Assembly (NCBI GenBank): GCA_037441845.1
Contig: JBBIRK010000001.1
Span: forward strand, 63,836 to 127,835
DNA length: 64,000 nucleotides
Reading direction: 5' to 3'
DNA from: Candidatus Zixiibacteriota bacterium
Lineage (GTDB): Bacteria > Zixibacteria > MSB-5A5 > UBA10806 > 4484-95
The position numbers were made by a program, and so were the translations under genes. This document shows, one piece after another, positions 37,710 to 58,076 of the stretch (its first letter is position 1; every line of letters starts with the position of its first letter). The notes under the pieces were generated by a model. It saw only the letters and a list, made by a program, of their open reading frames with translations. It was not told the origin of the DNA and made no database searches.

Positions 37710-37719
37710 AGGTAATTTA

Positions 37720-38601: not shown

Positions 38602-38604
38602 CGC

Positions 38605-39585
38605 TTACGGCACCTCGACCGCGTTGAATATTTTTTGAACTATCGCGTCACTTTCGATCTCTTCCGCTTCGGCTTCATAACTCAATATTATCCGGTGGCG
38701 CAAGACATCGGGGCCGATCGACTTGACATCATCGGGAGTTACATAAGCCCTTCCTTGCAGAAATGCATAAGCCCTGGCCGCCACATTCAAATAAATCGTG
38801 GCTCTGGGCGAAGCGCCATAGGCTATCAGGTCAGCGGCATCGATCTTGTAATCGGCGGGGCGGCGGCTGGCCATGACGATGTCAACTATATAATGCTTGA
38901 CCTTTTCATCGACATAAATCTGCCCGATAATTTCCCGGCAGGCCAAGATATCCTCCGGCGTAACCACGGGAGCCAACGCCTTGATTTCCCGGGCCGCCAT
39001 TCTCTCCTGAATTTTCAATTCCTCTTCGCGGCTCGGATAGCTGATTTTAAGTTTCAACATGAAACGATCGACCTGCGCCTCCGGCAGAGGATAGGTTCCC
39101 TCCTGCTCGATCGGATTTTGGGTCGCCAAAACCAAAAAAGGAGACGGCAGCGGGAAAGTATTATCTCCGATAGTGACCTGCCTTTCCTGCATCGCCTCGA
39201 GAAGTGCGGATTGCACTTTGGCCGGCGCCCGATTGATTTCATCGGCCAGAATAAGGTTCGCGAAAATCGGACCTTTGCGGGTTTCGAACTTTCCATTTTG
39301 ATAAATCATGGTGCCGGTCAAATCGCCCGGCAGAAGATCGGGAGTGAATTGAATTCTCTTGAAACTGGCCTGGATCGTTTGCGCCAGGCTTTTGGCGGCA
39401 AGCGTCTTGGCGAGTCCGGGTACACCCTCGATCAATATATGCCCGTCGGCAAGCAGACCTATAAGCAACCGTTCCACCATATATTTCTGGCCGACTATGA
39501 CCTTGCCGATTTCATCGGTCAGGCGGCCGATAAAGGCGGCTTTTTTTTCGATCGACTCCTGCACCCGTTGTATTTCCAAATTCAT
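38605..39585 (-). CDS. moxR: MoxR family AAA+ ATPase
   Basis: EGVPGLAKT, RIQFTPDLLP, LADEINRAPAKVQSALLEAMQE, TQNPIEQEGTYPLPEAQ.DRF, GASPR. GGAGG RBS. Confidence 0.96.
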   Translation of the reverse strand: MNLEIQRVQESIEKKAAFIGRLTDEIGKVIVGQKYMVERLLIGLLADGHILIEGVPGLAKTLAAKSLAQTIQASFKRIQFTPDLLPGDLTGTMIYQNGKFETRKGPIFANLILADEINRAPAKVQSALLEAMQERQVTIGDNTFPLPSPFLVLATQNPIEQEGTYPLPEAQVDRFMLKLKISYPSREEELKIQERMAAREIKALAPVVTPEDILACREIIGQIYVDEKVKHYIVDIVMASRRPADYKIDAADLIAYGASPRATIYLNVAARAYAFLQGRAYVTPDDVKSIGPDVLRHRIILSYEAEAEEIESDAIVQKIFNAVEVP

Positions 39586-39687
39586 AAGACCTCCAATTTT
39601 GGAAAATATTACACCGTAGACTCGTTTATGTTCCACCCAACGTGGACGAAATTTCGTCGAGTTCCGCCGAGTTCTGCTTTGTTTTTT

Positions 39688-40530
39688 TCATAATCCGTAG
39701 CCTCGACTGCCGAGATAAAGCGCGACCAAACCGAACGGCATTATCATTTTAAGTATTCGTGATAACACCCGAAATTCCACCGAACTACGCGAGCGCAACA
39801 GCATGATGACGACGAATACGAGCGGCAAATCGACCGCCGCAATCACCACGACCAGATATAAGCCCCCGTAAAGACCGATTAAAAACGGAACAGGGGTCAA
39901 AATCAACAAGGTAAGTCCAACGGCGATAGCGAAATTGCGGGAGACATTCAACCCATACTTGACCGCCCCTGTCCTTATTGAAAAGCTGCTGTCGTCCGGA
40001 AAATCCTCCATATCTTTGGTTATCTCGCGCATCAGATGCAGTGCGAATGCGAAAAGCGAAGGGAAAAACGATCCCGATAGATTGCCCACGGCAAGTCCTC
40101 CGAAGGGGAAGGCGCTGGCACAGATCAAAGCGATAAGAATGTTTCCCAAGTATCCGCGCCCTTTGAAAATCGGAGTATAAAGCCAAAGCAGAACAGCGTT
40201 GGCAACAGCAAGCACGCAACAATATCGGCCGACAAAGCAGGCTGATATTACTCCGGCCGAAACGAATATGGCGGCGGCGATTCTTGCGCTCTTGACGGAT
40301 AACCGGGCCGACGCCAGCGGACGATAGCCTTTGGATTTCTTATCGAGCTTAAGGTCATATAAATCATTCGCTATATTTCCGAAGGCGGCGATAAAACCGG
40401 CTGCCAGACCGGCGAGCAGAAGCTTTCCCGAATACAGATTGGGCAAACAGATGACTCCGCCGGCATAAACCGCAATAATGGTTATGATGACGTTAGCCGG
40501 CCGGATCACGGCTATCCAATGCTTAATCAA
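39688..40530 (-). CDS. UbiA prenyltransferase, DGGGP-synthase-like
   Basis: IRPAN, NDLYDLKLD..K.YRPL, YTPIFK, GNILIA, REITKDMED..DD. Confidence 0.85.
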   Translation of the reverse strand: MIKHWIAVIRPANVIITIIAVYAGGVICLPNLYSGKLLLAGLAAGFIAAFGNIANDLYDLKLDKKSKGYRPLASARLSVKSARIAAAIFVSAGVISACFVGRYCCVLAVANAVLLWLYTPIFKGRGYLGNILIALICASAFPFGGLAVGNLSGSFFPSLFAFALHLMREITKDMEDFPDDSSFSIRTGAVKYGLNVSRNFAIAVGLTLLILTPVPFLIGLYGGLYLVVVIAAVDLPLVFVVIMLLRSRSSVEFRVLSRILKMIMPFGLVALYLGSRGYGL

Positions 40531-42226
40531 ACTCCGTCCTTATAGCGAAATGAATTCTGGCTTCGGTCACATTTTCTCCGGCAGGGAAACCGATTTCGAG
40601 GATTGCCATACCCGGTGCAATCCTGGAAGCAATTCCTGCGCCGAAACCGGTCTTAAATAATGTTTCGGATGGGGTATGCGCCAGTATCGATTTCATATTG
40701 ATCCCGGCCAGATCGGCAAAGATATATGCCCGGCCGTCTCGATGGTACAAATAACGATATTCGATCGTGGCCACAGCGTATCTGGAGGCTCGAAATACAT
40801 CCTGGTCGAACCCCCTCAAACTACCGGCGCCGCCCAGAGAAAATTGCCGATCTACGACCGACTTATCGCCGAATATCGCTTTACCGACGATCTGGGCCAT
40901 AACGATGGTGGAATATGTTATGGGCGCGAATTTGCCGGCCATTATCTCTATTTGGCGATAACTATCGCCCGAGGAGTCTATCATTCCGCCATCATGTCGA
41001 TTTTCAAAGAAAAATCGCCAATCCATTTTCATTACTTCCCCCCGACGGGGATTGTCGGAGTAATCGCGATTATCGGCATAAAATCCGAGCAGTAAATCGA
41101 GTTTGTCCTTCGGAGGGATGATGTTTCGGCCGTAGGATTCCGCTGAGATTTGCGCAGCGCCGAAACCTATTCTGTAAGCATATCTCGACACCGTCGTCAG
41201 TTCGAGCGTCAGCCTCAAGCCGGTTTCGATATAGAGGCTATCGTAATCGAACTGGAAGGCATTTATTTGGACGTTTACCGGCCAATTCATCACGGACGGC
41301 TCGAAATATCCTAATTCCTTGTTGCTTGAGTATTCATCTTTCCTGCTCCACTCCATCTTTAACTGACGTCCCCTACCGAATATGTTGGATATCATCGCGT
41401 CTGCTTTTCCGAACAGCTTTTTTGTTTTCGAGGCTATTCCAACCATGCCTTCAATCTGCAAGGCGGGTCGCTCGGTGATCGGCAATTCAATGACTCCGTT
41501 TTGCGGATAACTTGAAAATTTCAGTTTGGGTTGACCTATGGATTTGAGAAAAGCCGCGCCATTAAGTCGCCTGGCGATCGATCTCATGCGTTTATTCGAA
41601 TAGACTATCCCCGGTTGAAACAGGCAATACGTTTCGAGGAAAGCCTGATCGATTAAATGTCGGCCCGGAAAATTTAATCCATGAATCGTCACTTTCGGTC
41701 CTGGATTGACAATCGCCGTCACACGTAAGCGATTTTCCGGTATCTGCTGGAAATCGCCGAAACCGATCTCGGCGTAGGGATAGCCGGCATTGGCAGCGCG
41801 CTCAAGTAATGCCATCGCGAGTTTCTCGATATTTGCCGAGGTGGCGGGCAAGTCGGTATAGTCTTGGCTCAACTCGTCGAAATCGAATAAACGCACGCTG
41901 TCCGATCCTGAAACCGCGATCGTCACCGAAAGCAGATACCTTGGTCCTCGGTTTATTATGAAGCTGAGATCGGCATGCGTCGGGCTGATTCGATAATTTA
42001 CGGCTACCTGGCAATCGAAATATCCCTCGTCTTGGAATACGGAGACGATTTTCAGGGAATCGGAACTAAGGCTGTCAGGTTGAAACGGCTTCCCCTCGGC
42101 ATTGACAAAGTCGATCAGCCGCGGCAGAGGACCGTTCTCCATACTTATGTTTCGAACCGTTTGGCCGTTTGCGGTAATCTCACTCAGGCAGAATAACAGA
42201 AACAATATCGATACGAGCGTTTTCAA
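40523..42226 (-). CDS. Omp85 (BamA/TamA) family protein with POTRA domains
   Basis: POTRA motifs (DEGYFD, AGYPYA), NIFGRG at the barrel start, LGGAGSLRGF, C-terminal IHFAIRTEFD. Confidence 0.88.
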   Translation of the reverse strand: MKTLVSILFLLFCLSEITANGQTVRNISMENGPLPRLIDFVNAEGKPFQPDSLSSDSLKIVSVFQDEGYFDCQVAVNYRISPTHADLSFIINRGPRYLLSVTIAVSGSDSVRLFDFDELSQDYTDLPATSANIEKLAMALLERAANAGYPYAEIGFGDFQQIPENRLRVTAIVNPGPKVTIHGLNFPGRHLIDQAFLETYCLFQPGIVYSNKRMRSIARRLNGAAFLKSIGQPKLKFSSYPQNGVIELPITERPALQIEGMVGIASKTKKLFGKADAMISNIFGRGRQLKMEWSRKDEYSSNKELGYFEPSVMNWPVNVQINAFQFDYDSLYIETGLRLTLELTTVSRYAYRIGFGAAQISAESYGRNIIPPKDKLDLLLGFYADNRDYSDNPRRGEVMKMDWRFFFENRHDGGMIDSSGDSYRQIEIMAGKFAPITYSTIVMAQIVGKAIFGDKSVVDRQFSLGGAGSLRGFDQDVFRASRYAVATIEYRYLYHRDGRAYIFADLAGINMKSILAHTPSETLFKTGFGAGIASRIAPGMAILEIGFPAGENVTEARIHFAIRTEFD

Positions 42227-45200
42227 AATTCCGCCTTCGCTTGCAGGCGTAGGTTATAATTATCATAGCCGTCGCCGAGCCGTTTATACGAATAACGGAT
42301 CTCCATTTCGGTATAACTATTCAGCCTGAACCGGAAAAGCAACAATCCATCGAAATTGTCGCCGTCCTTGCGGCCATCGGCGAAAAGATAAGCAATCCGC
42401 GATCGAGTCTGCGCGTTTACGCGGAGATAATTAAGTTGACTTTCGAACCGGCTCATCGCGCCCAGACTCAATACCATCTTCAGTCCCCCGCCGAACGAGG
42501 AAACTCCAAAGTCGCGCCGAATCTCTCTTTCGCGCCGAACGGAAACCGGTATTTCAAGTCTGAACGTTTTTGAAAGTTTGTAGAATTGAGTCAATTCGAC
42601 TTTGTAGCGATGAATATCGTAAGCACCCGAATAGATGACACGCTTATCGGCCGCATATCCGGCCGCGAACAGGTAACCCATCGTCTTCTGAGGATCGAAC
42701 CGCAATTCGATATCAACCGCGCTTAACCTGTCGTCGACCGATTCGAAATCGTACCGTGCCCCTCGATTTCTCGACAGGTTCAAAGTATTGCGTATATATT
42801 CGAAGGGCGAGGGGAGCCTGAACGTGGTTCGATTGCGCATGTCGAAACTCTCATACCGGGGACGCGAATAACCTCCGAATATGGGAAAAAGATGACCTAT
42901 TTGGAGATCGACTTCGGGGGCAAGATCATTTTCGAATGCAAGATCGTTCTCGATAGTGATTTTTTTGGCGAATGACGAAACCGGCAAAGCGTCTCCCTCG
43001 AAACGCGACCGCCAGCCGCCGGATATTTCATACCCGGCCGGCCCGTAATCTCTAAGCTGTCCCGCCGGCCTGATTACCTGAATATATTCGCCGCCTTGTT
43101 CGGGAACATAATCCTGTCCGTCAAGCCGATAATCACCCTTGCCGCGTCCTACATAGACGAACTCCCGAACCTTGGCTGATCTGGTCGATCCATTCAGGTT
43201 TTCGTAAAATGAAAATGCTATCCCCGGGTAAGTCAGTTCGATCTTGGAGTTCCCGGCGTATCTTGTAGATCTTTCTATATTCGGATAAAATGCCCGATTA
43301 TCGATGTAAACCAATCCCAATTCTCCGGAGACGCCCTTTCCTCCCCCGTCGAGTTTGACCGCGGCTTCATATTGGTCGGCGCGGCTTTGATAAACCCACT
43401 GATTCGAAGTGAACACGGATGGGGCGAATCGGCGGCGGCGCAATATATATTTTCCGCTCGAGGATAATCTCCCGGTAATTCGGAGATCCGCCGATGATTC
43501 GATTTCCACGACTCTTATCCCCTCAGTACTCCGGTCTTGACCTTTCTTGATGTCATAGCGCCCGACAAGCGAGGAGGCGATACGGCGGCCGGAAAAACGG
43601 GTTCCGGTTTCGAATCTATCCCATTGGGACTTATTTGTTGCCCCGCTTTGCCTCGATTCCGACAAGTCAACGGCTCCGAACAGGTTTAATCCTTGCAATG
43701 CCCTAAATGAAACATGGCCGAACCGATTGCTTGCCGAGATGCCGTCGGCTTTTAATTCTCCGGCTCCGACACGAATGTATTCGCCGGAATTCGATACCGC
43801 CGACGTCATAAATTCGCTTTGTCGTCGGTAACGCCCGGTCGAAGTCAAAGGAAGGTTGTACTGTCGGAACAGCTCGATCGTATCAATTGCCCCCGGGACA
43901 ATGAAATAGTTGTCGAATCTTCTATCTTTAATTTCCAGAATGTTGAAATCCCATACTCGACCAAGCCCCGGAAGACTGTCTTTTTTCCAGCCTCCGCTTA
44001 AAGAAATTCCGAGTCCCGTTCTGATATTATCAGCCGATGACAATTTATTCAGGTCATACCTTGAAACCGCCAGTTCGCTTCGAAAATGCAAATCTCCTTC
44101 GGATTTAAGCATGACCGAACCGTAATTCGCCGAATTCGGCAGAGGAAAATACTTTCTGGCCAAATACGAACCGAGACCTTTACCGACATATACATATCTG
44201 CCGAAACCTGCATATTCGTAGTCACCTTTACCTGTCCCCACAAGGCTGAAATAGACGTCATAAGAGCCGGAATCGACTCCCGCATATACGTAGATCGTAT
44301 CAAGTGATGAATCCACGATTGCCTCGTAATTACCCTGATTTTGCCCTACATAGCTGGCTCCGCCGATAAATGCTGATTCGGGGTCGGCGCCTGCCGTTTC
44401 GATAGCCCTTTTTTCAGCATCTCCGAGCTCGAAAGCCCGGGGACGCGATTCGTCATCGTTTTCGCCGATGAATTGAAAACTGATTGTCGGGCCGCGTTCA
44501 AACGCAATATCGCTTCGATAAAAGGAACGGCGATAATTTTCCAAAGGCACCTGGAACTTAACGCTGATCAAATTTTGGGAGGTGATAATCACCTTGGGCG
44601 TAAAAGTAATGTATCCGTAATCGTAATCTATTTCATAATCGTTATCGATTCCCCTCGAAAGTTTTCTACCGTCGATAAAAACCTCCTCGGTTCCCCGGAC
44701 TATGGTCCGTTGACCTGTTCCCGTATTGGCAGCAAGTTCGCCGCCGGTTAACGGATAAGGCCCTTGCCTTCCGTCGACTCCGAAGAATCGGATTTCCTTT
44801 TGCGCCCCGGGAGAAAATGCCACCGCTCCGGTTCCGGAAACGGGCCCGCCGAAACCGCTTAATTTCAGGCCGATCAGTCTGCGCCTGAAATCGAGAATGG
44901 AACCATCAACACCGGATAATTCGAGATTGCCGAAATCAGCGGCGAATGTCGGCGAGGTCAGATTCACCGAGACCCGGTCAAGCTCGTCCACAGCCTCGGT
45001 TTGCCCGCCTGCGCCGAGATTACGATCGGAGATATTTCCCGAAAGTCTGACATTGCCACCGAGATTTCCGCTTATGATCAAATCGAGACTTTGGGTCAAC
45101 GACGGCTCGCCGCTGTTCCCGAAATTGACCGCGAAGTTCTTACTTCCCGCCAGCTCAATGCCACCCGTTTTGTTTATAACCGGCTGAGGACGGCCTGCAA

Positions 45201-45537
45201 AAGTCGTGGTTTCCGGCCGATCGATTTCCTCCGGTCGCATGAGGTAATAACTATCGCTCAGCATAAGCGGCCAAACCTCAAGACGGACGAGCACGCTATC
45301 GCCGATAGGAAGAGAACGCGAGAAAAAAATGATCTTTTCCCTGAGGTCGATTCTATAATCCATTCCATCGACAAGAAGCGAATCCCTATATTGGACCTTT
45401 TCGCTTGCGGGAACAATTTGTTTTTGACAGAGAGCATACGGCCCGGTGGTGCCGTTGCCGGTGATGACGATTTCGATTGTCTCTGTTGCCTGGGCGATTG
45501 TCGCGCCGAGAATAAAGAGAAGCAAAAGGCGCTTCAC
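42223..45537 (-). CDS. Large outer-membrane beta-barrel protein with SprA-like N-terminal repeats
   Basis: Signal peptide; two GPY.L..IV..[ST]E.V...L..G.DY.ID...I.F modules; many amphipathic strands; ends LRLQAKAEF. Confidence 0.7.
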   Translation of the reverse strand: MKRLLLLFILGATIAQATETIEIVITGNGTTGPYALCQKQIVPASEKVQYRDSLLVDGMDYRIDLREKIIFFSRSLPIGDSVLVRLEVWPLMLSDSYYLMRPEEIDRPETTTFAGRPQPVINKTGGIELAGSKNFAVNFGNSGEPSLTQSLDLIISGNLGGNVRLSGNISDRNLGAGGQTEAVDELDRVSVNLTSPTFAADFGNLELSGVDGSILDFRRRLIGLKLSGFGGPVSGTGAVAFSPGAQKEIRFFGVDGRQGPYPLTGGELAANTGTGQRTIVRGTEEVFIDGRKLSRGIDNDYEIDYDYGYITFTPKVIITSQNLISVKFQVPLENYRRSFYRSDIAFERGPTISFQFIGENDDESRPRAFELGDAEKRAIETAGADPESAFIGGASYVGQNQGNYEAIVDSSLDTIYVYAGVDSGSYDVYFSLVGTGKGDYEYAGFGRYVYVGKGLGSYLARKYFPLPNSANYGSVMLKSEGDLHFRSELAVSRYDLNKLSSADNIRTGLGISLSGGWKKDSLPGLGRVWDFNILEIKDRRFDNYFIVPGAIDTIELFRQYNLPLTSTGRYRRQSEFMTSAVSNSGEYIRVGAGELKADGISASNRFGHVSFRALQGLNLFGAVDLSESRQSGATNKSQWDRFETGTRFSGRRIASSLVGRYDIKKGQDRSTEGIRVVEIESSADLRITGRLSSSGKYILRRRRFAPSVFTSNQWVYQSRADQYEAAVKLDGGGKGVSGELGLVYIDNRAFYPNIERSTRYAGNSKIELTYPGIAFSFYENLNGSTRSAKVREFVYVGRGKGDYRLDGQDYVPEQGGEYIQVIRPAGQLRDYGPAGYEISGGWRSRFEGDALPVSSFAKKITIENDLAFENDLAPEVDLQIGHLFPIFGGYSRPRYESFDMRNRTTFRLPSPFEYIRNTLNLSRNRGARYDFESVDDRLSAVDIELRFDPQKTMGYLFAAGYAADKRVIYSGAYDIHRYKVELTQFYKLSKTFRLEIPVSVRREREIRRDFGVSSFGGGLKMVLSLGAMSRFESQLNYLRVNAQTRSRIAYLFADGRKDGDNFDGLLLFRFRLNSYTEMEIRYSYKRLGDGYDNYNLRLQAKAEF

Positions 45538-48064: not shown

Positions 48065-51000
48065 CTATTTTATCAAGGCAACTTTCAGGATCATGTGTTT
48101 CTTCGAATCGACGGCATCGGCCTCGATTCTGGCCAGATATACGCCTGGGGCCACATTACGGCAATCCCAGGCGATTTCATTATCCGAACCGGCTATCGCC
48201 GCCCCTGACAGATTTTCCACGAGCTCTCCGGAGAGGTCGAATATTTTCACGACAACCCTGGCATCGCGATCGGAATAATAGCGGAAAGCCACCCGATCTG
48301 AGGCCGGATTGGGATAACAATAAACCGAGCCGTCGGGCAGAAATCCGGATGCGGAGCTGATCGGGCGATTAAACCGGGCATCCAAAACGGGATTGGCATA
48401 ATGGCCGCCATCGGACATGGGCCATGGATTCCTAAGGGAATCGTAATCGGCCTCAAGATTCCAGGCGGTTACGAATCCGAAACTATCAAGTGCGGCGATC
48501 TCCAGCGCGCCGTTGCCGTCGAGATCACAGGCGATCGGCGGGCCGATCAAATGAGACGTTGTCGGCAACGGAAAACCGGGCAGGGGAATTCCCCTGTAAT
48601 CGTAAGCGGCAACCCCGCCCCCGGGCAACGCGAAAATGATATCGGGATACCCATTGGAATTAAGATCGGCCAGCGTCACCGCCGGGGATTCCGCCGATGA
48701 GTTGGCGGCGAAATTCAATCTTACCGGAAAGCCGTTGAGATAAACACAATTACGATTCAAAGCATAAATCGTCAAGAAACGATCACCGCCGATCAGTGCG
48801 ATGTCCGGATAGCCATCGGTATCGATATCACCGACCGCCGGCGGCCCAAGATTGGGCAGAAGTCGTTGCGAAAGCGAATACTCAGCTCCGTCGATCAGAC
48901 AAAGATAATCGCCTATGACTACGACGGCATCGGCAAACAGGTCACGGTCGAAATCGGCCGCCGCCAATCCGCGGTATTGACCATCGGGCAATGTAATTTC
49001 GCCAACAAACGTGAAAGATATCCCGCTTCTACGCAAAATTCGACAGGTGAATGATAAATCATCTGCGCAAATAATGTAAGCCACCGAATCGGCGATTGCT
49101 ACCGCCCTTGGCGTTCGGGTGAGACTGTCCAAAACCGTCATCGCCAGGCTGTCCGGCGAGAACATTTTCAGATATCGAATAGTCTTGTCCTCAAAACCCA
49201 CAACGATTTCATCATTACCGTCGAGATCCAAATCGATAGTCAGTGGGGATGCAGTGACGTCGGCAGGAAAGGTCAAACCGGTCATGAAATCCGACAGCGA
49301 ATCGAGCGGAAAGCTGTCGATAGGCGCATAAACCCGAAGGATACCGCGATTATCCAACAGGATAACCTCGAGACGATCATCGGCTATTAGATTTCCGGCA
49401 ACGGGTCTCGCGGCCAATGAAGTATCATTGATGGTGAACAACGGCAGATCATAAATCAATGAATCGCCGTCGAAACGCGGAACATACAATCCCGACGTGA
49501 GCGGAAAATAGGGCGTGCCGTCATGCTGCAGGCAAACCAGGAATCTACCCCCGCCAGTCAGTAATTCATTGCGGCCGTCGGCGTTCAAATCGAGAAACAA
49601 GAGGTCGTGATTATCGCCGATATAAGGAAAACCCATGACCGGGAAACCCGGTCGGAACCAATCTATCCTGATGCTCCCGCAATGCATCAGCGTATCCGAC
49701 GAATCTATATCCGTAATCCAGATATGACTGTCCGCGCCGAGATTCGAGCGGCTGCTCGGATTGGTAAACGGCGATAAGGTGGCATTATTGTCTATCCGAT
49801 AATAGTCGTCCGCCGAGCCGTAGCCCGTATAGTAGTTGCCGCCGAAATCTATTATGCCGTCGGCCTCGACCACGGTCAGAAACCGCCTCGATGGGTCCCA
49901 TTGAAGGGTGTTATTGAGAAAATTGTTTCTTCCGTTGCCCAAATAGTCCATATAGGCGACCGTCTCGTCCACGTGCCAAATTAAAATTCCATCGCCCGGC
50001 AAAAGACGGTCATATTCGCCGGTGGGGACTTTTATCGTATCGTTCATATCGAAATAGGCATAACCGGGTCCGAGAATGACGCCGGTCGCCGGATCCGCCA
50101 AAAGTACGTTTGGTATGGAGGGGTTATAATCCAGGTAACCGAAATCCGCCGTGGTTTGACGATTTTCGATCAGGAAATACTCGTGTTCGGATATCGGCAC
50201 CTTGACGATTTCATTGTTGAAGTATGCCTGTTCGGCCGCTCTTACCGGAACGTTCTGCTGGTTCACCACTTCATGCACCGCCGAGAAACCCAAATAAGCT
50301 CTCGACCAGGCATCCGGATAGATCGGCAGTGCCCCATTCACGAATCGGGCTCCTTCGCCGAGGTCTATAGCCACGGACATACCGTTATTGTCCATCAACG
50401 AAAAATCGCCGACTTGGGTCATGAAATTAAGCGTGCTGTAGATATCGACCAGCCCCAATTGGTGTCCGAATTCATGCGCCAGCACTGCATTCAAGCAGGT
50501 AATCCGATTGTCCTGAGAGGCAGTCTCGGGCATGAGCAACCCCTCGCTGATGTAGTTGCGGCCGCTGTCCACGCTCACGGAGTCGCCTAATGATATAAAT
50601 CCTGTCCAAAGATCGTTGGGAGTGTCGTCAATAAAACTAAAGTTATTTTGCTGATCGCTGCCGGCGTGGAAAATTATAACTGATTGAAAACGTCCGAAAT
50701 CGAGCTGGGGAAACTGACTATCGGCCAGGGTGATCGAATGGATGAAAAACCGCTCCAGCCCGCTGATTATGCTATCGGGATTTCCCCCGCTGCCGTAATA
50801 CGACATCGGAAAAGGCAAACGCAACGAAACGGTCTCCTCGACCGGATAAATTTCCCAGATCAGGCGCAACCGCCTATCGGATACGAACCGCCAGTAGCGG
50901 GCGAGCGCTTCCATATGCGACGAAAAGTAAGCTGTGTTGTGAGGAGCGGGATCCAGAAAATGGCCCTCTTCCTGCAAGAATTGCTCGTAACTCCGCAAAT

Positions 51001-51349
51001 CGAATGTACCGTCGCCAGTGGTCGTGGGGTCATCGGGGACTTCCTGCTGAAAGTCGACTTTCAGAACGAGGACGTTCAGAGTATCGATCTGAGAGGAAAG
51101 CGCAAGGGGTAGATTCCCCTTGGCAACCGGCAATCCGAATTCGGTTTCGCGCTCGAGTTTCAACAGATTTTTCCGTGACACCATCGAGTGGAACCCGGTG
51201 GTTCGGGGTCGAGATTCCGATGGATTCAGCGACCATTTCCCGCCGGATTGAACGGGCCTAAGCACCGACGGAGGTAAAGCCGAATGGACGGCGACCCAAA
51301 ATGAAAATACGATTGGAATTACGATCCAGCGGATTTGCGATGCGCTCAC
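48065..51349 (-). CDS. M6 (immune inhibitor A-like) metalloprotease + FG-GAP repeats + T9SS-like C-terminal domain
   Basis: LKVDF, IFHAG, AHEFGHQLGLVDIY, FSLMD, YFLIENRQ, GILIWHVDE; D[LI]D.DG repeats; YPNP...IFDLSGELV...WD...APGVY. Confidence 0.9.
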   Translation of the reverse strand: MSASQIRWIVIPIVFSFWVAVHSALPPSVLRPVQSGGKWSLNPSESRPRTTGFHSMVSRKNLLKLERETEFGLPVAKGNLPLALSSQIDTLNVLVLKVDFQQEVPDDPTTTGDGTFDLRSYEQFLQEEGHFLDPAPHNTAYFSSHMEALARYWRFVSDRRLRLIWEIYPVEETVSLRLPFPMSYYGSGGNPDSIISGLERFFIHSITLADSQFPQLDFGRFQSVIIFHAGSDQQNNFSFIDDTPNDLWTGFISLGDSVSVDSGRNYISEGLLMPETASQDNRITCLNAVLAHEFGHQLGLVDIYSTLNFMTQVGDFSLMDNNGMSVAIDLGEGARFVNGALPIYPDAWSRAYLGFSAVHEVVNQQNVPVRAAEQAYFNNEIVKVPISEHEYFLIENRQTTADFGYLDYNPSIPNVLLADPATGVILGPGYAYFDMNDTIKVPTGEYDRLLPGDGILIWHVDETVAYMDYLGNGRNNFLNNTLQWDPSRRFLTVVEADGIIDFGGNYYTGYGSADDYYRIDNNATLSPFTNPSSRSNLGADSHIWITDIDSSDTLMHCGSIRIDWFRPGFPVMGFPYIGDNHDLLFLDLNADGRNELLTGGGRFLVCLQHDGTPYFPLTSGLYVPRFDGDSLIYDLPLFTINDTSLAARPVAGNLIADDRLEVILLDNRGILRVYAPIDSFPLDSLSDFMTGLTFPADVTASPLTIDLDLDGNDEIVVGFEDKTIRYLKMFSPDSLAMTVLDSLTRTPRAVAIADSVAYIICADDLSFTCRILRRSGISFTFVGEITLPDGQYRGLAAADFDRDLFADAVVVIGDYLCLIDGAEYSLSQRLLPNLGPPAVGDIDTDGYPDIALIGGDRFLTIYALNRNCVYLNGFPVRLNFAANSSAESPAVTLADLNSNGYPDIIFALPGGGVAAYDYRGIPLPGFPLPTTSHLIGPPIACDLDGNGALEIAALDSFGFVTAWNLEADYDSLRNPWPMSDGGHYANPVLDARFNRPISSASGFLPDGSVYCYPNPASDRVAFRYYSDRDARVVVKIFDLSGELVENLSGAAIAGSDNEIAWDCRNVAPGVYLARIEADAVDSKKHMILKVALIK

Positions 51350-51360
51350 GCTACACCTGT

Positions 51361-53934
51361 CTAAAAGCCTACGTTGATCGATAACCTGACGGTATTCCCC
51401 AGTCGATTGGTCTCTTCATTGGATGATGGGATATACGAGAGGTCAACCCGCAGCCGCGAATATTGCAACGAGCCGCCGAGCGTCATATATCGCTGCACAC
51501 CGATATCATCATATACGTAACCGGCCCTGACGGCTATATAATTCGAATACCAATATTCGGCTCCGATATGAGGGATTATCTCCCTTATTTCGGTTTTCAG
51601 ATCGTCGTTGAGATCCACCAGCAGCTTGTTGGCCTCGCCCACTATAGTCAACCTATTGTACGGTGAATCAATCAGCTTGTAGGCGAAAGCCACCGCAAGC
51701 TTGCGGGGAAGCGGGTCGGCCTGATCGGCATCGATATAGGCTATCTCCGGTCCGATATTGGTGATGGTGGCCGCAAGATCGGTCCGCCGGTCAAAATTGT
51801 ATAAAACACCACCATCGACGGCACCCGAAAAACCCACCCCCTTGCCCTTTTCCAGGCCGGCACCGACATCGGCAAGATGGGAGATAATAATTCTGGCGGA
51901 TATCCCCGCGGAGAGGGATTTCATCAGCTTCGTGCCATACGAAACGGTCCAGGCGAGATCATAGGACGTAAATTGTCCGATTACGTCGCCCACTTCGTTG
52001 GTTCTATCCTGTTGACCATAGGAAAGAAAGGTTATACCGGTGCCGAAAGTCCCCCACTCGCTGGTGGGATAGACGATCGCGAAATAATCGTAGTATAAAT
52101 CCGGAGCGAGCTGGGTAAGGTAATTGGAATGCATGAAAGTCACCTGACCCCGGGGGCGAGCCAACAAATAAATCCGATCGGAACCGGCGAACCAGAGCTC
52201 GCCATATTCGTTTTCGATCGTGTGAACCGGCGAGCGGATCCCCTCCAGGCGGGCGAAACGGCTCCAGATTCCGTCGTTGTATTCGACGACGCCATAGGCG
52301 GTTCCGACATAAGCCTTTTTCTGCGAGACGGCCGACACGGAAAAAATCTTCGAACCGAGCTGATTGGCGTAAACCACCAAACTTTTCCCCTGAGGAATCG
52401 TTTCGCCTTCAAGTTCGTTTAGTTCCAGAATCTTTCCGGCAAGCCTTTCGACCTGTTCATCGCTGCCCTCGGGAAGGATATTTCTTGCCATTTCGAAAAC
52501 GCTCATCTCCCTATCAGCTTGAATCACGCGATAACCGAAATTAACGAAAGATTCGCCATCGAAAAGCACAAGGCCGTTCTCGGTTCCTATCCACAGATAT
52601 TTATCTTTGGCGGCAAGCGAGGTTATGTCGCCCCACAAGGCTGGGGCATACGGAAGTTTTATTTTTTGACCGAGCGTTACCTCATCGCTGAAATCGTTCA
52701 ATCGCCGGACCTGTTCTTTTAGGCGTTCGATATTCAAATCGGCACCGGTGCGATAGATTTTTTTCAAAATGTCCCCAAGAGTCTCGCCGACGGACACTTC
52801 ATGAATCATGTAATTTTTCCACGACCCGCCGTCGTAATGATATAGATCCCGATCGGTTGCCGCCCAGATACTCTGGTCGCTAATCGCGGAGATGTTAGAA
52901 ATATATCCCTGCGGCGGGGTTTCCTGGGAAGAATATTGCTTGATCCTAACGCCGTTATAATAAGCTATGCCGTTTTCGGTTCCGACAACTATGCTTTTCT
53001 TGCCCATTTTATCGAGCGCGGTTACTTTGAGAGCCGGCAAGCTGTCAGGCAACCCGTAATACCGCCATTTATTCGAGGTCGGATCGAATCGATAGAAGCC
53101 GGAATCGGTGCCGGCATAGATCATGCCGTCATGCGATTCCAAACAATTGGCCGGAGCCTTGCGCGGCAGATCGAACGGTATCCTGATCTCGGACATGGCC
53201 TTTGCACTTACCGCGTGGTCTATTTCCGCGATCAACGTGTCCGTTTCCTCGGTCGAAAGACGTCCGTCGGCCGACATCGTTTGAACCGACTTTTCGAAAT
53301 TGATGAAACCCTGCGGCAATAATTTGAGCTCAGCATATGCCGCGGTTAGACGATTGACGCCGTTCCTGATATACTCGGCATTCGGGTCCGAGTCGGATAT
53401 TCTGGTAAGAACATTATTGATGACGGATTCGAGCCGCTGGCGGCTTATCCTCAGGTTCCACTGCAAAACTTGATCGACTTGCGCGCTGAGCTGATCCCTC
53501 TCGGCGCCGGTGTAACGGGCCACGATATCCGACAAAGCCGTACCGGCTCCGATTTTGACCGCTATGCCCGAATTCCAGCGATCTTTTTCCCATTTCACCA
53601 GATGACCGTTCATCAATGCCCAGATATCGAACTGCTTATAATTATTTTCCGGCATATCGTTCTTAACAAGCACCAATTTTTCGATTTTATATCCTCGTCT
53701 CGAGGGTAACTCCAGCCACAACGGCGAAAGAGGATAATTCCCCAGGCCGGCGGGATTCCAGTGGGTCGCCGTCGCATCATCGGCAATTGATACAAAAGTC
53801 TCTCCCATGCCTCCGGCGCGGGCTCCCGGAGCGATCAGCAAAAACGGCACGGCGGTCTGCGAAACCTGAGCCGAAGATTGCGCAGCGATAACGACCAAAA
53901 ACAAAATCGCGTATATGGATAACCTTTGCATCAA
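51361..53934 (-). CDS. porV: PorV-family OM barrel with a ~530-aa beta-propeller/LysM insertion
   Basis: AVPFLLIAPGARAGGMGE..ADDATATHWNPAGL at aa 28-64. The barrel resumes near aa 595 (FMHSNYL..L..DLYY, SYDLA..VSYG, NIGP.IAY..QADPLP, GAEYWY...AVRAGY, RVDLSY..NTVRLSINVGF). Directly downstream of porU. Confidence 0.88.
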   Translation of the reverse strand: MMQRLSIYAILFLVVIAAQSSAQVSQTAVPFLLIAPGARAGGMGETFVSIADDATATHWNPAGLGNYPLSPLWLELPSRRGYKIEKLVLVKNDMPENNYKQFDIWALMNGHLVKWEKDRWNSGIAVKIGAGTALSDIVARYTGAERDQLSAQVDQVLQWNLRISRQRLESVINNVLTRISDSDPNAEYIRNGVNRLTAAYAELKLLPQGFINFEKSVQTMSADGRLSTEETDTLIAEIDHAVSAKAMSEIRIPFDLPRKAPANCLESHDGMIYAGTDSGFYRFDPTSNKWRYYGLPDSLPALKVTALDKMGKKSIVVGTENGIAYYNGVRIKQYSSQETPPQGYISNISAISDQSIWAATDRDLYHYDGGSWKNYMIHEVSVGETLGDILKKIYRTGADLNIERLKEQVRRLNDFSDEVTLGQKIKLPYAPALWGDITSLAAKDKYLWIGTENGLVLFDGESFVNFGYRVIQADREMSVFEMARNILPEGSDEQVERLAGKILELNELEGETIPQGKSLVVYANQLGSKIFSVSAVSQKKAYVGTAYGVVEYNDGIWSRFARLEGIRSPVHTIENEYGELWFAGSDRIYLLARPRGQVTFMHSNYLTQLAPDLYYDYFAIVYPTSEWGTFGTGITFLSYGQQDRTNEVGDVIGQFTSYDLAWTVSYGTKLMKSLSAGISARIIISHLADVGAGLEKGKGVGFSGAVDGGVLYNFDRRTDLAATITNIGPEIAYIDADQADPLPRKLAVAFAYKLIDSPYNRLTIVGEANKLLVDLNDDLKTEIREIIPHIGAEYWYSNYIAVRAGYVYDDIGVQRYMTLGGSLQYSRLRVDLSYIPSSNEETNRLGNTVRLSINVGF

Positions 53935-54053: not shown

Positions 54054-57000
54054 TCATCTCATTATCACGAGTTTCGATTGAAAAGAGTCTTTTTGCCGCC
54101 GGCCCTCGTCGTCATACCCGATCGCTTCGATTCGATAGATATAAACGCCGCTGGCCAACCTGTCACCATCATCATCGCGCAGATCATACGGCAGAAAATG
54201 ATGGCCGCCAACCGTGTATTGAGGCGAATCCTTTCTTATGGTTTTGATTAATCTTCCGGACAACGTGAATATTTTGAGAGTTACGGTTTCAGCCGGTCGA
54301 GTTAAAACATATTGAAACGTAGTCGAGTCGGTCTGCACCGCCGGATTCGGATAATTCATCACATCGAACAAGGAAAGATCGGTCGTTCCGAAAACTCGAA
54401 TCGGCGATGAATAAACCGAAGAGTTATTATAGCTGTCCCAAGCTTTGAGACTGATCGTATAATCACCATCGGGGAGCAACGGCAATTCCGCTGAAACCTC
54501 GCCACTCTGCCAGTTGCCGAGATCGAAGCGGAAATCGGAGGTTATGTCCGCCGAGTAGGTCTGACCGCCGTTTATGCTCATCACGATCCCGTGCCCCATC
54601 GAACCGGTGATATTTATGCCATGCTCGTCGAACAGCCTGAACACCAGTGACGCCCCGGATGATACGACCGCTAATTTTCCGGTGACCGGATTTCCGTTGT
54701 AATAAAACTCTATCCGGGGGCCGACGGTATCGATTTCTCCGGCTGCGCTGCCGGAAATCGGCAGCGAATCGACTATGCCGGAACCATCGATCGTTTCGTT
54801 GGCGAAATAAACGTAAATTTTAGCCCTCGATCCGCCATAGGAAATATCCTTGGGCACGAAAAACGAAGTCGAAAAACGGCCGTCGATCACTTCCGCAGGT
54901 CCGTAGAACAAAGTCGGACCGGGTAAAGTATAATCGACATAAACGTAATTGGGGGGATTGAGCGGCTGGTTATTATAATCGAGGATCGCCTTATGTCGCC
55001 GAACCGAAGCGTCCTTCACCGTCACCCAGATTATGCCGTTGAAATCGGAGACGAATCGCCCTTGACTGTCGTAAATCCCGCCGGCGATCGAATCGACCGA
55101 CAGTCCTTTCAACGAATCCGGCCGGTAGGTGAATTCCGATCTCAAATAAGGCTTGGCCGCGATCATTCCCGGATCACCGAGGAAAACGTAATTGCGATCG
55201 TTGGCGATCGGCCCGTAAGGGTTGTTCAATTGCCTGATATATTTGGCCATGAAGAAAGCACCTCCGAACGTGGTGGAATCCTCGAACAAGATCTGGTCGA
55301 AAATCTCATTATTGAGATCGGTGTTGGGGCCGGCGTACACGACACGGGTTGCGCCTATGGAGGCTATGGCCCCGCCTTCAGGATGGCTCAATAAATCCTC
55401 GGCCATCGATTGATCGGCTGGCGCATCGAAAAATCCTATGGAGCAGGATGCGGCAAGCATCAGCGGCAGCTTGCGGCCGTTTCGGAGACGCGGGATATCC
55501 TCGGTTCTGCGAAATATCTGTTCGTGAGCCCAGAGATTCTTGTTGCCATGGCCTATCCAATCGACAATAAGCGCGCCGTTGTTGATCGCCTGCACCAGGG
55601 CTTCCCTTGCGTCGGTCTTCAGATTTCCCGCTCTCGTGGGATATTCGACAAGATATATTTTCTGAACCTCCATGGTCCGCGGCACATGAAAATTGCTTAA
55701 AGCCTCGGCCTGGGTGGTATGAAACGTTTCATAAGGCGAAAGTCCTCCGAGATTATCATCGGCGACGACAATCACGTTGTTGCGCCACTTTCCCATATCC
55801 GGATTAGCCTCGTAATCGATTATCTTATCGACTATGGTCTGCATCTCCGCCGCGCTGTTTACTCCCAAGCGGCCTATCATCATATCGAGGCTTCCTGAGC
55901 TGTCTGAATCGAAATACCCATAGCTACCGAAATAGATGAAGTTCTCGTCGGAACCTGATGCTCCGGCCTCAGGCGGATTCGCAGCCTCGAACGGAGGGAT
56001 ATAAATCGGGTGGCCGCCGCCCAGGTTGTTGCGAAAGTCATAGTGTCCGTCGCCGACCAAAAGGCATATTCCGGGAGAAGCACCGCTCCAATTTTCGTAG
56101 GCGAATTTCAAGAAGTCACGGATAGCGAGCGGGTCGTTCAACCCCCAACTGAATTGATTGAAGATATCGTCGATATTCACGACTCTTACTTCCAGCTCCG
56201 GATTTTGTCTTGCCCGATGTTCGGCCAGTTGCTCGACTTGTTCCCTGAACAACGGGTGCGTAATCATGATATAATCGGCGCGGTTAGCTGGGTCACGCAG
56301 GTTGTCGCGCTCGTAACGCGAATAGCGGCCTACTATTCTAAAGCGGGAAGGTCCGGCCATGTAAAAACGATGTCGACGGGAATTGACCTGCTGAAAGCGC
56401 AGCGTATCGCCGACGAATACGCCGTTGACTATTCTGCGCACGCTATCCGGCGAACTTATATCCAGCAGCACATAATCACTCGAGGTCCCGGCGACTCGAT
56501 ATTCGATTCGTCCGAGCAATGTGGGGCTGGTAAACGTCAAAACGTTATCGACTGTCCGCAGATGCCTGCTGTAATGAATCTCTATGTAATCCAGAAAGAA
56601 TTCGACGGCATTGCTCAATACGAGAGTATTATAGCCACCCTGAAGGTTTTGTGTGGAGAAGAAATGCAGATAAGAATAGGGGTCCCTATAAACCGAGTCG
56701 CGCGTCGCCGCAACTCCATTCACCGTCAGCCCCGAGAAGGAATTCCTGGTCTTCACTATCACTCTCGCGGGAATTCCGCCCAGAGCGTCGGTCGCCTGAA
56801 TACTGGCGGTGAAATTCTGGCCGCGGCCCCAGTACCAATCGAAATAATTGGCAAATTCGCCGCTCGATTCGGTTCTATAAAATATGAATTCCTGCTCGTC
56901 ATGCGTAAAATCGGTGAAACTGGTCATGATCGCCAACGGCGATCCCGTCGGCGCGCCGTTTTCCTGCGCCCAGCGCCGGGGAAGATTGCCGAAGTTGCCC

Positions 57001-58076
57001 CCATAGGTCAACCAGTAGGCGTTGCGCGATGTATAATGATTGCGCTGGTAAGTGAAGCGGCCGGCTGATTCGTTGAATTCGAATCGATCCACGCTTTCGC
57101 CGAAAAACAGCACTTGATCGCCGAAATCGAATACCCCGTCATCGCCGCCGATAACCTCGATCGGGATCTCGAAAAGGTTCGGTCGGGCGGTTTCATTATC
57201 AAAAGGCAACTCATCGCCGCCCCCATAGAAAATCCTGATCTGGCGGGGATCTATCTGGCCGACATCCAAACCGGCATTCGAAAGATCGAATCGATTTATC
57301 CTGTATATACCGGTATTGGAGATTTCCATTTTAAGCCACACTTCCGCCGAGTCGAAAGCCGATGCGGTCATCTGTGATCGCAACTGCGTCGGCGGCCAAT
57401 CGATCCGCCATGCCTCGGCCAGTTCATAATTGGCCACGAGCTCTTTAAGTATTTTGTCGAATACCGGTCCGGCAGGCCGCTGGGAAACCGCCGGCGATCG
57501 GGAAACAGGCACGAAATCGATCCGCACGACGATCTTTTCGGCTTTCATCCGCAGATCGCCGTCGATGTTTATGGGGGCCATAACCAATTTCGCGATGCGC
57601 AATCCCCGGATAATATCTTCTCCGGCCACCCAGGCGATTCTTGTCGGCCAGCTGGTCGTCCTTCTCTGATTCCGTGCGAGTTCGGCCGAAAACTCTTTTT
57701 CTGAAAAGGAGCAAATATAGGGTGCGGTTTCCGCCGATTCGAGCGGGATAAACGATTGGCTCAATATGGTTATCCGGATATCGCAGTTGAATGGTACGCC
57801 GATCGGGATAACTTTTATCGGCAATAACGGCTCACCTTCGATTCGGTTCTGCGCCGTTCGCGGAATCTGTGGGTAACGATATGATTCCGGATATCCCTCG
57901 ATCTTGGTATCGCTAACCGGCGGGACAAGGTAGGTGACGGTCATGCCGCTTATCGAGGATTCATTTATGAAGATGTCGTTATCGAAAACGATTTCGCCCG
58001 TTTCCGGATCGGAAAAGGATAATTGCGTCCCCAAAAATAAAATAGAGGCTATTATCGCAATGCGAAAGAGTCTCAA
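54054..58076 (-). CDS. porU: PorU-like T9SS sortase (C25 family) with propeptide-like N-terminus and CTD
   Basis: GIYRI, IRIFYGGG..LP, N.YT..NAYWL, IFNQFSWG..DPLAIRDFLK, LLVGDGHYDFRN, IGRL, ADD, WIGHG (His), ASC (Cys), LGDP, DTVGP.I, LFDEHGIN, LKAWDSYNN, NYPNP. Confidence 0.92.
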   Translation of the reverse strand: MRLFRIAIIASILFLGTQLSFSDPETGEIVFDNDIFINESSISGMTVTYLVPPVSDTKIEGYPESYRYPQIPRTAQNRIEGEPLLPIKVIPIGVPFNCDIRITILSQSFIPLESAETAPYICSFSEKEFSAELARNQRRTTSWPTRIAWVAGEDIIRGLRIAKLVMAPINIDGDLRMKAEKIVVRIDFVPVSRSPAVSQRPAGPVFDKILKELVANYELAEAWRIDWPPTQLRSQMTASAFDSAEVWLKMEISNTGIYRINRFDLSNAGLDVGQIDPRQIRIFYGGGDELPFDNETARPNLFEIPIEVIGGDDGVFDFGDQVLFFGESVDRFEFNESAGRFTYQRNHYTSRNAYWLTYGGNFGNLPRRWAQENGAPTGSPLAIMTSFTDFTHDEQEFIFYRTESSGEFANYFDWYWGRGQNFTASIQATDALGGIPARVIVKTRNSFSGLTVNGVAATRDSVYRDPYSYLHFFSTQNLQGGYNTLVLSNAVEFFLDYIEIHYSRHLRTVDNVLTFTSPTLLGRIEYRVAGTSSDYVLLDISSPDSVRRIVNGVFVGDTLRFQQVNSRRHRFYMAGPSRFRIVGRYSRYERDNLRDPANRADYIMITHPLFREQVEQLAEHRARQNPELEVRVVNIDDIFNQFSWGLNDPLAIRDFLKFAYENWSGASPGICLLVGDGHYDFRNNLGGGHPIYIPPFEAANPPEAGASGSDENFIYFGSYGYFDSDSSGSLDMMIGRLGVNSAAEMQTIVDKIIDYEANPDMGKWRNNVIVVADDNLGGLSPYETFHTTQAEALSNFHVPRTMEVQKIYLVEYPTRAGNLKTDAREALVQAINNGALIVDWIGHGNKNLWAHEQIFRRTEDIPRLRNGRKLPLMLAASCSIGFFDAPADQSMAEDLLSHPEGGAIASIGATRVVYAGPNTDLNNEIFDQILFEDSTTFGGAFFMAKYIRQLNNPYGPIANDRNYVFLGDPGMIAAKPYLRSEFTYRPDSLKGLSVDSIAGGIYDSQGRFVSDFNGIIWVTVKDASVRRHKAILDYNNQPLNPPNYVYVDYTLPGPTLFYGPAEVIDGRFSTSFFVPKDISYGGSRAKIYVYFANETIDGSGIVDSLPISGSAAGEIDTVGPRIEFYYNGNPVTGKLAVVSSGASLVFRLFDEHGINITGSMGHGIVMSINGGQTYSADITSDFRFDLGNWQSGEVSAELPLLPDGDYTISLKAWDSYNNSSVYSSPIRVFGTTDLSLFDVMNYPNPAVQTDSTTFQYVLTRPAETVTLKIFTLSGRLIKTIRKDSPQYTVGGHHFLPYDLRDDDGDRLASGVYIYRIEAIGYDDEGRRQKDSFQSKLVIMR

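Follow-up and report, generated by a model that had tools for sequence, protein, structure and literature searches.

A PorV carrier of Zixibacteria is split by a predicted periplasmic β-propeller with LysM-derived modules and may be tethered to the cell wall

Models of type IX secretion systems (T9SS) rest on Bacteroidota, in which PorV is a bare outer-membrane barrel that takes cargo from SprA to the PorU complex. Can a working PorV also carry a large domain of its own, and what would such a domain do? The question is raised by a gene of a Candidatus Zixiibacteriota bacterium, found in a 64,000-nucleotide stretch of DNA (assembly GCA_037441845.1, contig JBBIRK010000001.1, positions 63,836 to 127,835), referred to here as the window, to which all positions refer unless otherwise stated. 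The long porV gene occupies 51361..53934 (−). The original prediction, made from the letters of the window alone, described it as a PorV interrupted between its N-terminal hatch and its barrel by about 530 residues of β-propeller and LysM-like modules. On balance, we favour the view that the protein is a true PorV bearing a 530-residue periplasmic propeller-LysM domain, which would act as a non-covalent tether to peptidoglycan and as a docking surface for partners.

The gene encodes 857 residues when read from a TTG codon. Translation is likely to begin at the ATG at 53931, which gives 856 residues, and the 856-residue database entry P0004 is the identical protein, starting at that ATG one codon after the TTG. 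A probable Sec signal peptide (MQRLSIYAILFLVVIAAQSSAQ, 53866..53931 (−)), read by eye from the translation and modelled as a helix over residues 2-15 with a low predicted local distance difference test score (pLDDT), precedes the PorV hatch at 53740..53865 (−), which ends in HWNPAGLG. The NCBIfam model PorV_fam (NF033709) matches the protein at 231.5 bits (cut-off 90), and the match is in two parts: profile positions 1-40 fall on the hatch (G000:C1:117575-117694 in contig coordinates, window 53740-53859), and positions 45-326 fall on residues 595-857 (G000:C1:115199-115987, window 51364-52152). The Pfam PorV model (PF19572) also matches, at 78.8 bits against 27 (E = 6.2e-22). Between the two PorV_fam pieces lies a gap of ~1587 nucleotides (~529 residues), which falls between positions 40 and 45 of the profile's 326, and the pieces border the coordinates, ~52154-53739, at which the split had been proposed. 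The insert is mapped to 52150..53739 (−), that is 530 residues (66-595), and comprises a seven-bladed Reg_prop-type β-propeller and three LysM-derived modules; the 14-strand, FadL-type PorV barrel follows at 51364..52149 (−) (residues 596-857).

The AlphaFold2 (AF2) model of the long PorV, made from an alignment of 58 orthologues, has a pLDDT of 83.6 and a predicted template modelling score (pTM) of 0.75. Averaged over 10-residue blocks, the hatch is poorly defined (38-74) and the insert (residues 66-595) is the best part, mostly at 85-95. Fourteen long strands are modelled between residues 596 and 855, all after the insert, so the discontinuous 14-strand barrel that the original prediction had envisaged is present in the model. 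The top Foldseek matches of the whole model are the PorV chains 8gl6_F (2.4e-16) and 6h3i_F (9.1e-14), with a TM score normalised to the target of 0.62, and the full-length profile A1 finds PorV among Protein Data Bank (PDB) sequences at 7.3e-45. Conservation, expressed as mean identity to this protein over 57 aligned homologues (56 orthologues and its own database entry), is highest in the hatch (0.83), followed by the barrel (0.60), the propeller blades (0.35-0.44), the LysM modules (0.24-0.33) and the helical bundle within module 1 (0.21).

The side of the outer membrane on which the insert lies can be read from the order of the strands. Both termini of an even-stranded outer-membrane barrel are periplasmic. 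The connections between the modelled strands alternate between long (9, 5, 5, 17, 15, 4 and 12 residues) and short (5, 2, 4, 3, 3 and 2 residues), which fits a register in which strand 1 starts at the periplasm. Since all 14 strands follow the insert, this register and the even-strand rule together place the insert, in the model topology, on the periplasmic side of the outer membrane, as had been proposed for the hatch-to-strand-1 junction. A PorQ-like paralogue of 376 residues (L014, G000:C5:234625-235755) carries an insert of ~36 residues at the same point, between PorV_fam positions 41 and 45, and the hatch-to-strand-1 junction thus seems to be a recurrent insertion site.

The propeller is of the type found in sensor proteins. 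After PorV itself, the Foldseek ranking of the whole model continues with sensor propellers from hybrid two-component systems of Bacteroides (3va6, 4a2l, 3ott, 3v9f), and the A1 profile reaches the 4a2l sensor domain at 2.8e-41 in the search of PDB sequences. Seven blades are assigned because the translation and the AF2 model hold ~27 strands outside the LysM modules and seven motifs of the 'hWhGTxxGhxxhD' type. Reg_prop (PF07494) scores 19.6 bits in this protein, just below its gathering score of 20.4, and lies above the cut-off in 46 of 56 scanned proteins (its own database entry and 55 orthologues). The sensor-propeller blades named in the original prediction are thus borne out, their quoted motifs being present in the translation and the Foldseek ranking and the 4a2l match agreeing. 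Modules 1, 2 and 3 each loop out immediately after a 'DGxxW/F' strand, of blades 1, 5 and 6 by blade-motif count; the blades before modules 2 and 3 are those of what had been quoted as the third and fourth motifs. By the usual topology of propellers, the three modules would sit on one face.

Module 2 (52642..52827 (−), residues 370-431; HEVSVGETLGDI...LN...GQKIKLPY) is a LysM unit with a lengthened helix 2, and module 3 (52363..52545 (−), residues 464-524; YRVI...SVFEMA...ILELN...GKSLVVY) is a divergent one. Separate profiles were built from the orthologous loci for module 1, module 2 (A3) and module 3 (A4) because the Pfam LysM model misses this protein itself; the sole trace of LysM in the Pfam/NCBIfam scan of the protein is a weak YneA match (0.018) over residues 373-429. 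Against PDB sequences, the module 2 profile finds the LysM chains of LytE (8i2e_B, 4.3e-9), 4uz2_A (1.7e-5) and 4xcm_A (7.2e-4), and the module 3 profile finds 8i2e_B (1.1e-4) and 4uz2_A (2.4e-4). Among the 56 scanned proteins, 19 have a Pfam LysM match above the gathering score at the homologous positions and 20 have one at E ≤ 0.01, for example at the position of module 2 in P0073 (42.6 bits) and of module 3 in P0104 (35.1 bits) and P0115 (34.5 bits); of 48 distant representatives, 3 also match the model at E ≤ 1e-4. Folded alone with AF2, module 2 reaches a pLDDT of 83.3, and its β-α-α-β order, assigned by DSSP, is the same in isolation and in the full model. The ten top-ranked chains of its Foldseek search are all LysM (probability 0.80-0.99, TM score normalised to the query 0.49-0.66). 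By homology to solved LysM chains, modules 2 and 3 are classified as LysM domains, and the stretches of the original prediction, 52648-52803 and 52369-52533, fall within them.

Module 1 (53173..53583 (−), residues 118-254) is tied to LysM solely through the other two. Pairwise hhalign comparisons give 96.7% (E = 3.6e-10) for modules 1 and 2, 91.5% (E = 8.7e-7) for modules 1 and 3, and 97.8% (E = 7.4e-13) for modules 2 and 3. Its DSSP assignment runs from a strand at 122-126 and a helix at 133-141, through four helices within 149-218, to a helix at 227-240 and a strand at 248-252, so that a four-helix bundle of ~70 residues (residues ~150-219, 53278-53487 (−)) stands between helix 2 and the final strand. 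An asparagine that closes helix 2 is invariant or nearly so in each module (N159, N412, N505). From these alignments, module 1 is related to LysM, with a helical bundle interrupting the unit; the 'degenerate first copy' of the original prediction finds its counterpart here. In many Zixibacteria lineages (L034-L038, L040, L044, L047, L050-L052, L055, L059, L061, L077, L079, L080, L086, L094), 30-90 additional residues lengthen the second helix-to-strand loop of module 2; they are acidic, rich in Thr, Ala and Glu, and of low complexity.

The architecture is not confined to this genome. Of 8000 candidates scored in a word-indexed search, 434 were homologues; nearly all of the best 120 are 840-1050 residues long, those with informative source names are all from Zixibacteria, and public annotation calls them 'PorV/PorQ family protein' or 'hypothetical'. 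The full-length protein matches in 41 of 41 relatives, and the insert alone matches in all 151 sampled Zixibacteria genomes (19 families, 88 genera), usually once per genome and in frames of ~790-1100 residues. In an exhaustive search with the insert, the number of matching proteins was 8562 at E ≤ 0.001 and fell to 732 at E ≤ 1e-10 and to 48 at E ≤ 1e-30. Among the 150 matches listed, 48 with few matched stretches were picked, and in 45 of these the insert is followed by a PorV barrel; the matches not picked are sensor-type proteins of the multi-repeat kind, matched on their blades only. A pattern scan of species genomes added three long forms titled Chitinispirillaceae, Chitinispirillia and Fibrobacteres. 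In Fibrobacterota the match is found in 121 of 121 sampled genomes, in frames of ~700-950 residues, and Reg_prop and PorV share one open reading frame (ORF) in all eight examples scanned (8/8). The Zixibacteria (A1) and Fibrobacterota (A6) alignments match end to end (100%, E = 4e-117, 630 columns), with the columns of modules 2 and 3 as gaps in Fibrobacterota and the interrupted module 1 kept (96.4%, E = 1.1e-9 against the module 2 profile). By these sequence comparisons, the long PorV is the standard form in Zixibacteria and a one-module version is the standard form in Fibrobacterota. The original prediction was right in the architecture it proposed, to which it has to be added that this form is no oddity of one gene.

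Some departures from the common form were noted. Long PorVs of ~1045-1057 residues carry ~190 extra residues between hatch and propeller (L032, L033, L039, L054, L058, L060; P0078, P0114, P0118). On the closed chromosome of L046, the ORF has 776 residues only and matches query residues 28-693, and in L114 (G146) the long porV appears to be split across two frames; these two may be variants or frameshifts. Among the clusters of ten distant representatives, which carry almost no taxonomy, one is titled 'Candidatus Deferrimicrobium sp.'.

A tree of the hatch and barrel (74 rows, 323 columns, of which 4 come from the insert; two mis-picked rows left out) places the Zixibacteria long forms in one group and the Fibrobacterota long forms in another, with values of 90 and 99, respectively, in the Shimodaira-Hasegawa-like approximate likelihood ratio test. 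In the free tree, the Fibrobacterota long forms fall outside a group of canonical and Zixibacteria forms. An order of gain and loss taken from the free tree was rejected, as a constrained tree that joins all long forms scores better, by 16.4 log-likelihood units (p = 0.769 in the approximately unbiased test), and the data thus allow the insert to have arisen once.

In the mechanism that we favour, PorV would collect C-terminal-domain cargo at the SprA translocon and deliver it to the PorU sortase, and its chain would leave the barrel at the hatch-to-strand-1 junction to build the 530-residue periplasmic domain, whose three LysM-derived modules would grip the peptidoglycan glycan in a non-covalent and multivalent manner. 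This grip would fix PorV, and along with it the PorU attachment machinery or the translocon, in depth and place below the outer membrane, and the free face of the propeller would offer a docking surface for periplasmic partners. The long PorV would thus join the role of PorV to a PorE-like role, that of an outer-membrane-anchored propeller with a wall binder, as in Porphyromonas. LysM domains bind glycans that contain N-acetylglucosamine (GlcNAc). This preference, taken with the predicted periplasmic location, points to peptidoglycan as the ligand, and the modules most likely bind its glycan strands non-covalently. Retention of the insert in every sampled genome of the two phyla argues for selection on it. 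The domain identities, the homology to LysM, the orthology and the conservation in two phyla are results of the comparisons; the periplasmic location, glycan binding, tethering and any docking partner are projections from them.

Several observations weigh against a wall tether. Pfam LysM (PF01476) has no match in this protein at E ≤ 1, the full-length A1 profile finds no LysM chain among PDB sequences at E ≤ 1, and the module 1 profile finds none at E ≤ 10. The Foldseek E-values of isolated module 2, a short query, are all ≥0.06, with none ≤0.001. The LysM modules are among the least conserved parts of the protein, and module 2 contains long acidic low-complexity stretches in some lineages. 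None of the eight Fibrobacterota long PorVs has a Pfam LysM match at E ≤ 0.1; with module 1 as the only module in that phylum, wall binding cannot fully account for the propeller. A firm tether would also hinder the exit of PorV from the translocon, which the current model requires (PMC10994853). In favour of the tether, PorE (NF052230) has no full-length match within the genome, the best being 66.5 bits to the OmpA_C part alone, and no match within the insert; the PorE model is narrow, with a cut-off of 600 bits, which makes this absence weak evidence.

A bolder version of the tether would make the Zixibacteria and Fibrobacterota carrier a stationary, wall-tethered platform whose propeller replaces PorE, and perhaps the PorK/N ring, in scaffolding and anchoring. 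We regard this as improbable. If true, it would point to a simpler or older mode of T9SS operation in phyla in which no PorL/M/N motor genes were detected.

An alternative of comparably low standing is that the propeller is a periplasmic handle or adaptor, gripped by the T9SS machinery to dock PorV on SprA or to eject it, with the LysM modules as lineage-specific accessories. It is prompted by the carrier SprF and by PorG, which link to the GldK track through their periplasmic parts and of which SprF uses a periplasmic domain to reach that moving track (PMC12635249). The propeller is common to both phyla, LysM modules 2 and 3 are not, and conservation is higher in the blades than in the LysM modules; that Fibrobacterota keep the propeller with a degenerate module only likewise argues that the propeller has a role of its own. 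Energy is spent on release of the carrier-substrate complex in the current model (PMC10994853). Against the handle, models of GldL (TIGR03513), GldM (TIGR03517, PF12081) and GldN (TIGR03523) have no match in the 98%-complete genome, in searches run without a positive control, so that absence of these genes is unproven; with the same proviso, GldM has no match in five more non-Bacteroidia genomes of the wider group (G042, G163-G166). Nor is there a conserved cysteine for a disulfide of the SprF/PorG type, the protein's only Cys being present in 60% of A1 rows and 20% of A2 rows.

It is less likely still that the insert binds a glycan other than the wall, either the glycolipid or glycan to which PorU anchors its products, delivered in a PorZ-like manner, or free oligosaccharides to be sensed. 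The nearest solved propellers are the glycan-sensing domains of hybrid two-component systems, and GlcNAc-containing glycans are ligands of LysM domains in general. Weak matches to the PorZ model (36.8-50.8 bits) occur in Fibrobacterota forms, PorZ_N_b_propeller is matched in P0070 and P0129, and the A1 profile reaches 5m11 at E = 0.023. Yet the genome has a separate full-length PorZ-like gene (748 residues, 221.6 bits against a cut-off of 260), and Pfam and NCBIfam find no signalling output domain attached to the insert. PorZ, moreover, acts at the cell surface, whereas the topology places the insert in the periplasm. Besides the full-length gene, the PorZ model has 22 more weak matches in the genome. 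All of them fall on its C-terminal end and may represent sorting domains.

We also think it quite unlikely, somewhat more so than a non-wall ligand, that the protein is a PorV-derived paralogue without a cargo role, an OmpA-like tether between outer membrane and wall, and that a canonical-length paralogue is the working PorV. There are at least 10 PorV/PorQ-family genes in the 2.6-Mb genome, and on the PorV equivalog model T9SS_OM_PorV (NF033710) the long PorV, matched in three stretches, reaches 180.4 bits, below the cut-off of 250. The other ten of the 11 family members scored are far lower on that model, however, at ≤81 bits; one is PorQ-like (171 bits to T9SS_PorQ) and one PorV2-like (144 bits), and no member of the family reaches a curated equivalog cut-off. 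The long gene holds the conserved porU-porV slot, its hatch and barrel are strongly conserved, and the usual single insert match per genome indicates one long form each across the phylum. With the best equivalog score of the genome, the porU-adjacent slot and the conservation of hatch and barrel, the long PorV is, by orthology and locus, the true PorV of the organism and its predicted carrier, and SprA is found in the same genome (711 bits summed). The PorV/PorQ family of this genome also includes 607-residue and 617-residue forms with long C-terminal extensions, one with TPR-like matches, and a tandem pair on C7.

A chimeric assembly or gene-fusion artefact is hardly credible: although the window belongs to an assembly of metagenome type with 11 contigs, conservation of the architecture in the 41 relatives and the 151 genomes excludes chance and misassembly, the 434 database homologues and closed chromosomes of relatives (e.g., G013, G021) share it, and a contig obtained independently in another study (record 8 of run X2, 52037-52273) spans the insert-to-barrel junction. 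The hatch-to-insert junction is spanned by no independent run contig; the runs are only two DNA runs with small shares (0.18, 0.08), whose contigs give partial coverage, and no RNA run is among those listed.

The setting of the gene agrees with its identity as PorV. Directly upstream lies porU, the T9SS sortase gene (54054..58076 (−)), which matches NF033707 at 686.7 bits against 420 and Peptidase_C25 at E = 2.6e-86. Directly downstream lies the gene for an M6-like metalloprotease whose sequence includes FG-GAP repeats as well as a T9SS C-terminal sorting domain (48065..51349 (−); Por_Secre_tail E = 2e-8). The protein matches the 'inactivated metalloprotease' model NF052323 at 313 bits against a cut-off of 600; despite this match it retains an HEFGH motif in its translation. 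The neighbourhoods of 58 loci of relatives with long PorV, a sample that includes near-duplicates (e.g., L006, L021), were compared. A survey of this kind had been proposed in the original prediction, and it finds a PorU match upstream of long porV in 54 of the 58, the remaining four having less than 600 nucleotides of upstream sequence. The M6-like gene is downstream in 51. Of the seven loci without an M6-like match, four end inside porV or ~15 nucleotides after it and L090 ends ~400 nucleotides after it; L046 and L048 have more than 1 kb of flank after porV and no M6-like match.

The same porU-porV-M6-like slot holds a canonical PorV of ~345-410 residues at loci of KSB1, Calditrichota and Eisenbacteria. 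The M6-like gene follows porV in several phyla, in its long or canonical form, Fibrobacterota included (L063-L098; L066, L091, L092). In the Fibrobacterota cluster, the third gene (L066:6507-8672, L091:12671-14671, L092:12224-14344) encodes an HExxH region and a TolB-like propeller, and that of L066 has a faint PorE match (29.9 bits).

Further along the window, an ORF of 1104 residues at 42226-45537 (−) has as its sole match a faint SprA-like one (TIGR04189, 23 bits), and a BamA-like barrel of 567 residues (92 bits, below cut-off) at 40526-42226 (−) overlaps this upstream ORF by one base. The two lie a few genes downstream of the porU-porV-M6 cluster and may form an outer-membrane pair not characterised so far. 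A Bat-like cluster at 35770-39636 (−) comprises a BatA-like VWA protein, a MoxR/ChlD-type AAA ATPase and two unassigned ORFs between them.

The significance of the long PorV lies in what it would add to T9SS models built on Bacteroidota. Two phyla (151 and 121 genomes) possess a large conserved PorV domain, predicted to be periplasmic, by which the carrier would be linked directly to the periplasm and, probably, the wall; if real, this link constrains the shuttle model. As a natural fusion, the protein would show which periplasmic functions must sit beside PorV, and it provides a soluble domain for studies of binding and interaction. A further lesson is that FadL-type barrels can accommodate a domain of 530 residues at the junction of hatch and strand 1. 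The idea could be tested outside uncultured lineages if, as we assume, the sampled Fibrobacterota include cultivable Fibrobacter.

The full-text literature searched, with subscription-only papers and supplements outside its scope, holds no description of a PorV with a propeller-LysM insert and nothing that pairs Zixibacteria with type IX secretion or T9SS. In agreement with the original prediction, which did not know the architecture from characterised systems, the propeller-LysM PorV appears to be undescribed so far. It can nevertheless be set beside several known systems, each of which shares a part of it.

The hybrid two-component sensors of Bacteroides (BT4663, BT4673, BT3049; PF07494 Reg_prop) have the same type of blade and are the nearest solved propellers. 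They differ in that paired propellers sit on an inner-membrane kinase and bind free oligosaccharides, whereas the long PorV has one propeller within an outer-membrane barrel protein, with LysM modules looped from three of its blades.

Intimin (PDB 2mpw) and YeeJ provide the precedent of an outer-membrane β-barrel with a periplasmic LysM, and the intimin LysM is rank 10 in the Foldseek search with module 2. The inverse autotransporter barrel to which they belong has 12 strands. These proteins, in contrast to the long PorV, have a single N-terminal LysM before a secretion barrel, lack a propeller, and represent another barrel family and another secretion system. YeeJ is reported to bind peptidoglycan (PMC5595812).

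Within the T9SS, the SprF/PorP carriers and PorG are likewise outer-membrane proteins whose periplasmic parts reach the periplasmic machinery (PMC12635249), through disulfides formed by a twin-cysteine motif to GldK/PorK. A link of this kind was rejected for the long PorV, which has no conserved cysteine motif.

PorE of Porphyromonas gingivalis (PG1058) is the closest functional parallel. It is an outer-membrane-held T9SS component with a periplasmic propeller and a peptidoglycan binder; its OmpA_C domain has been shown by crystallography to bind peptidoglycan, with a fragment of which PorE was crystallised, and it has been proposed as the wall anchor of the T9SS (PMC7192894). PorE differs in being a lipoprotein without a barrel, in its five-bladed propeller of the TolB/WD40-like type and in its wall binder, an OmpA_C domain that binds the peptide stem, in place of LysM. 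The two show no sequence relation, and their likeness is functional only.

The nearest relative by both structure and sequence is PorV of Flavobacterium johnsoniae (6h3i_F, 8gl6_F), with which the protein shares the NPAG-motif hatch and the 14-strand barrel; with the PorV/PorQ family at large (NF033709, PF19572), it shares a gene that adjoins porU. What sets it apart is the 529-530 residues between hatch and strand 1, where the whole solved chain of F. johnsoniae has 402.

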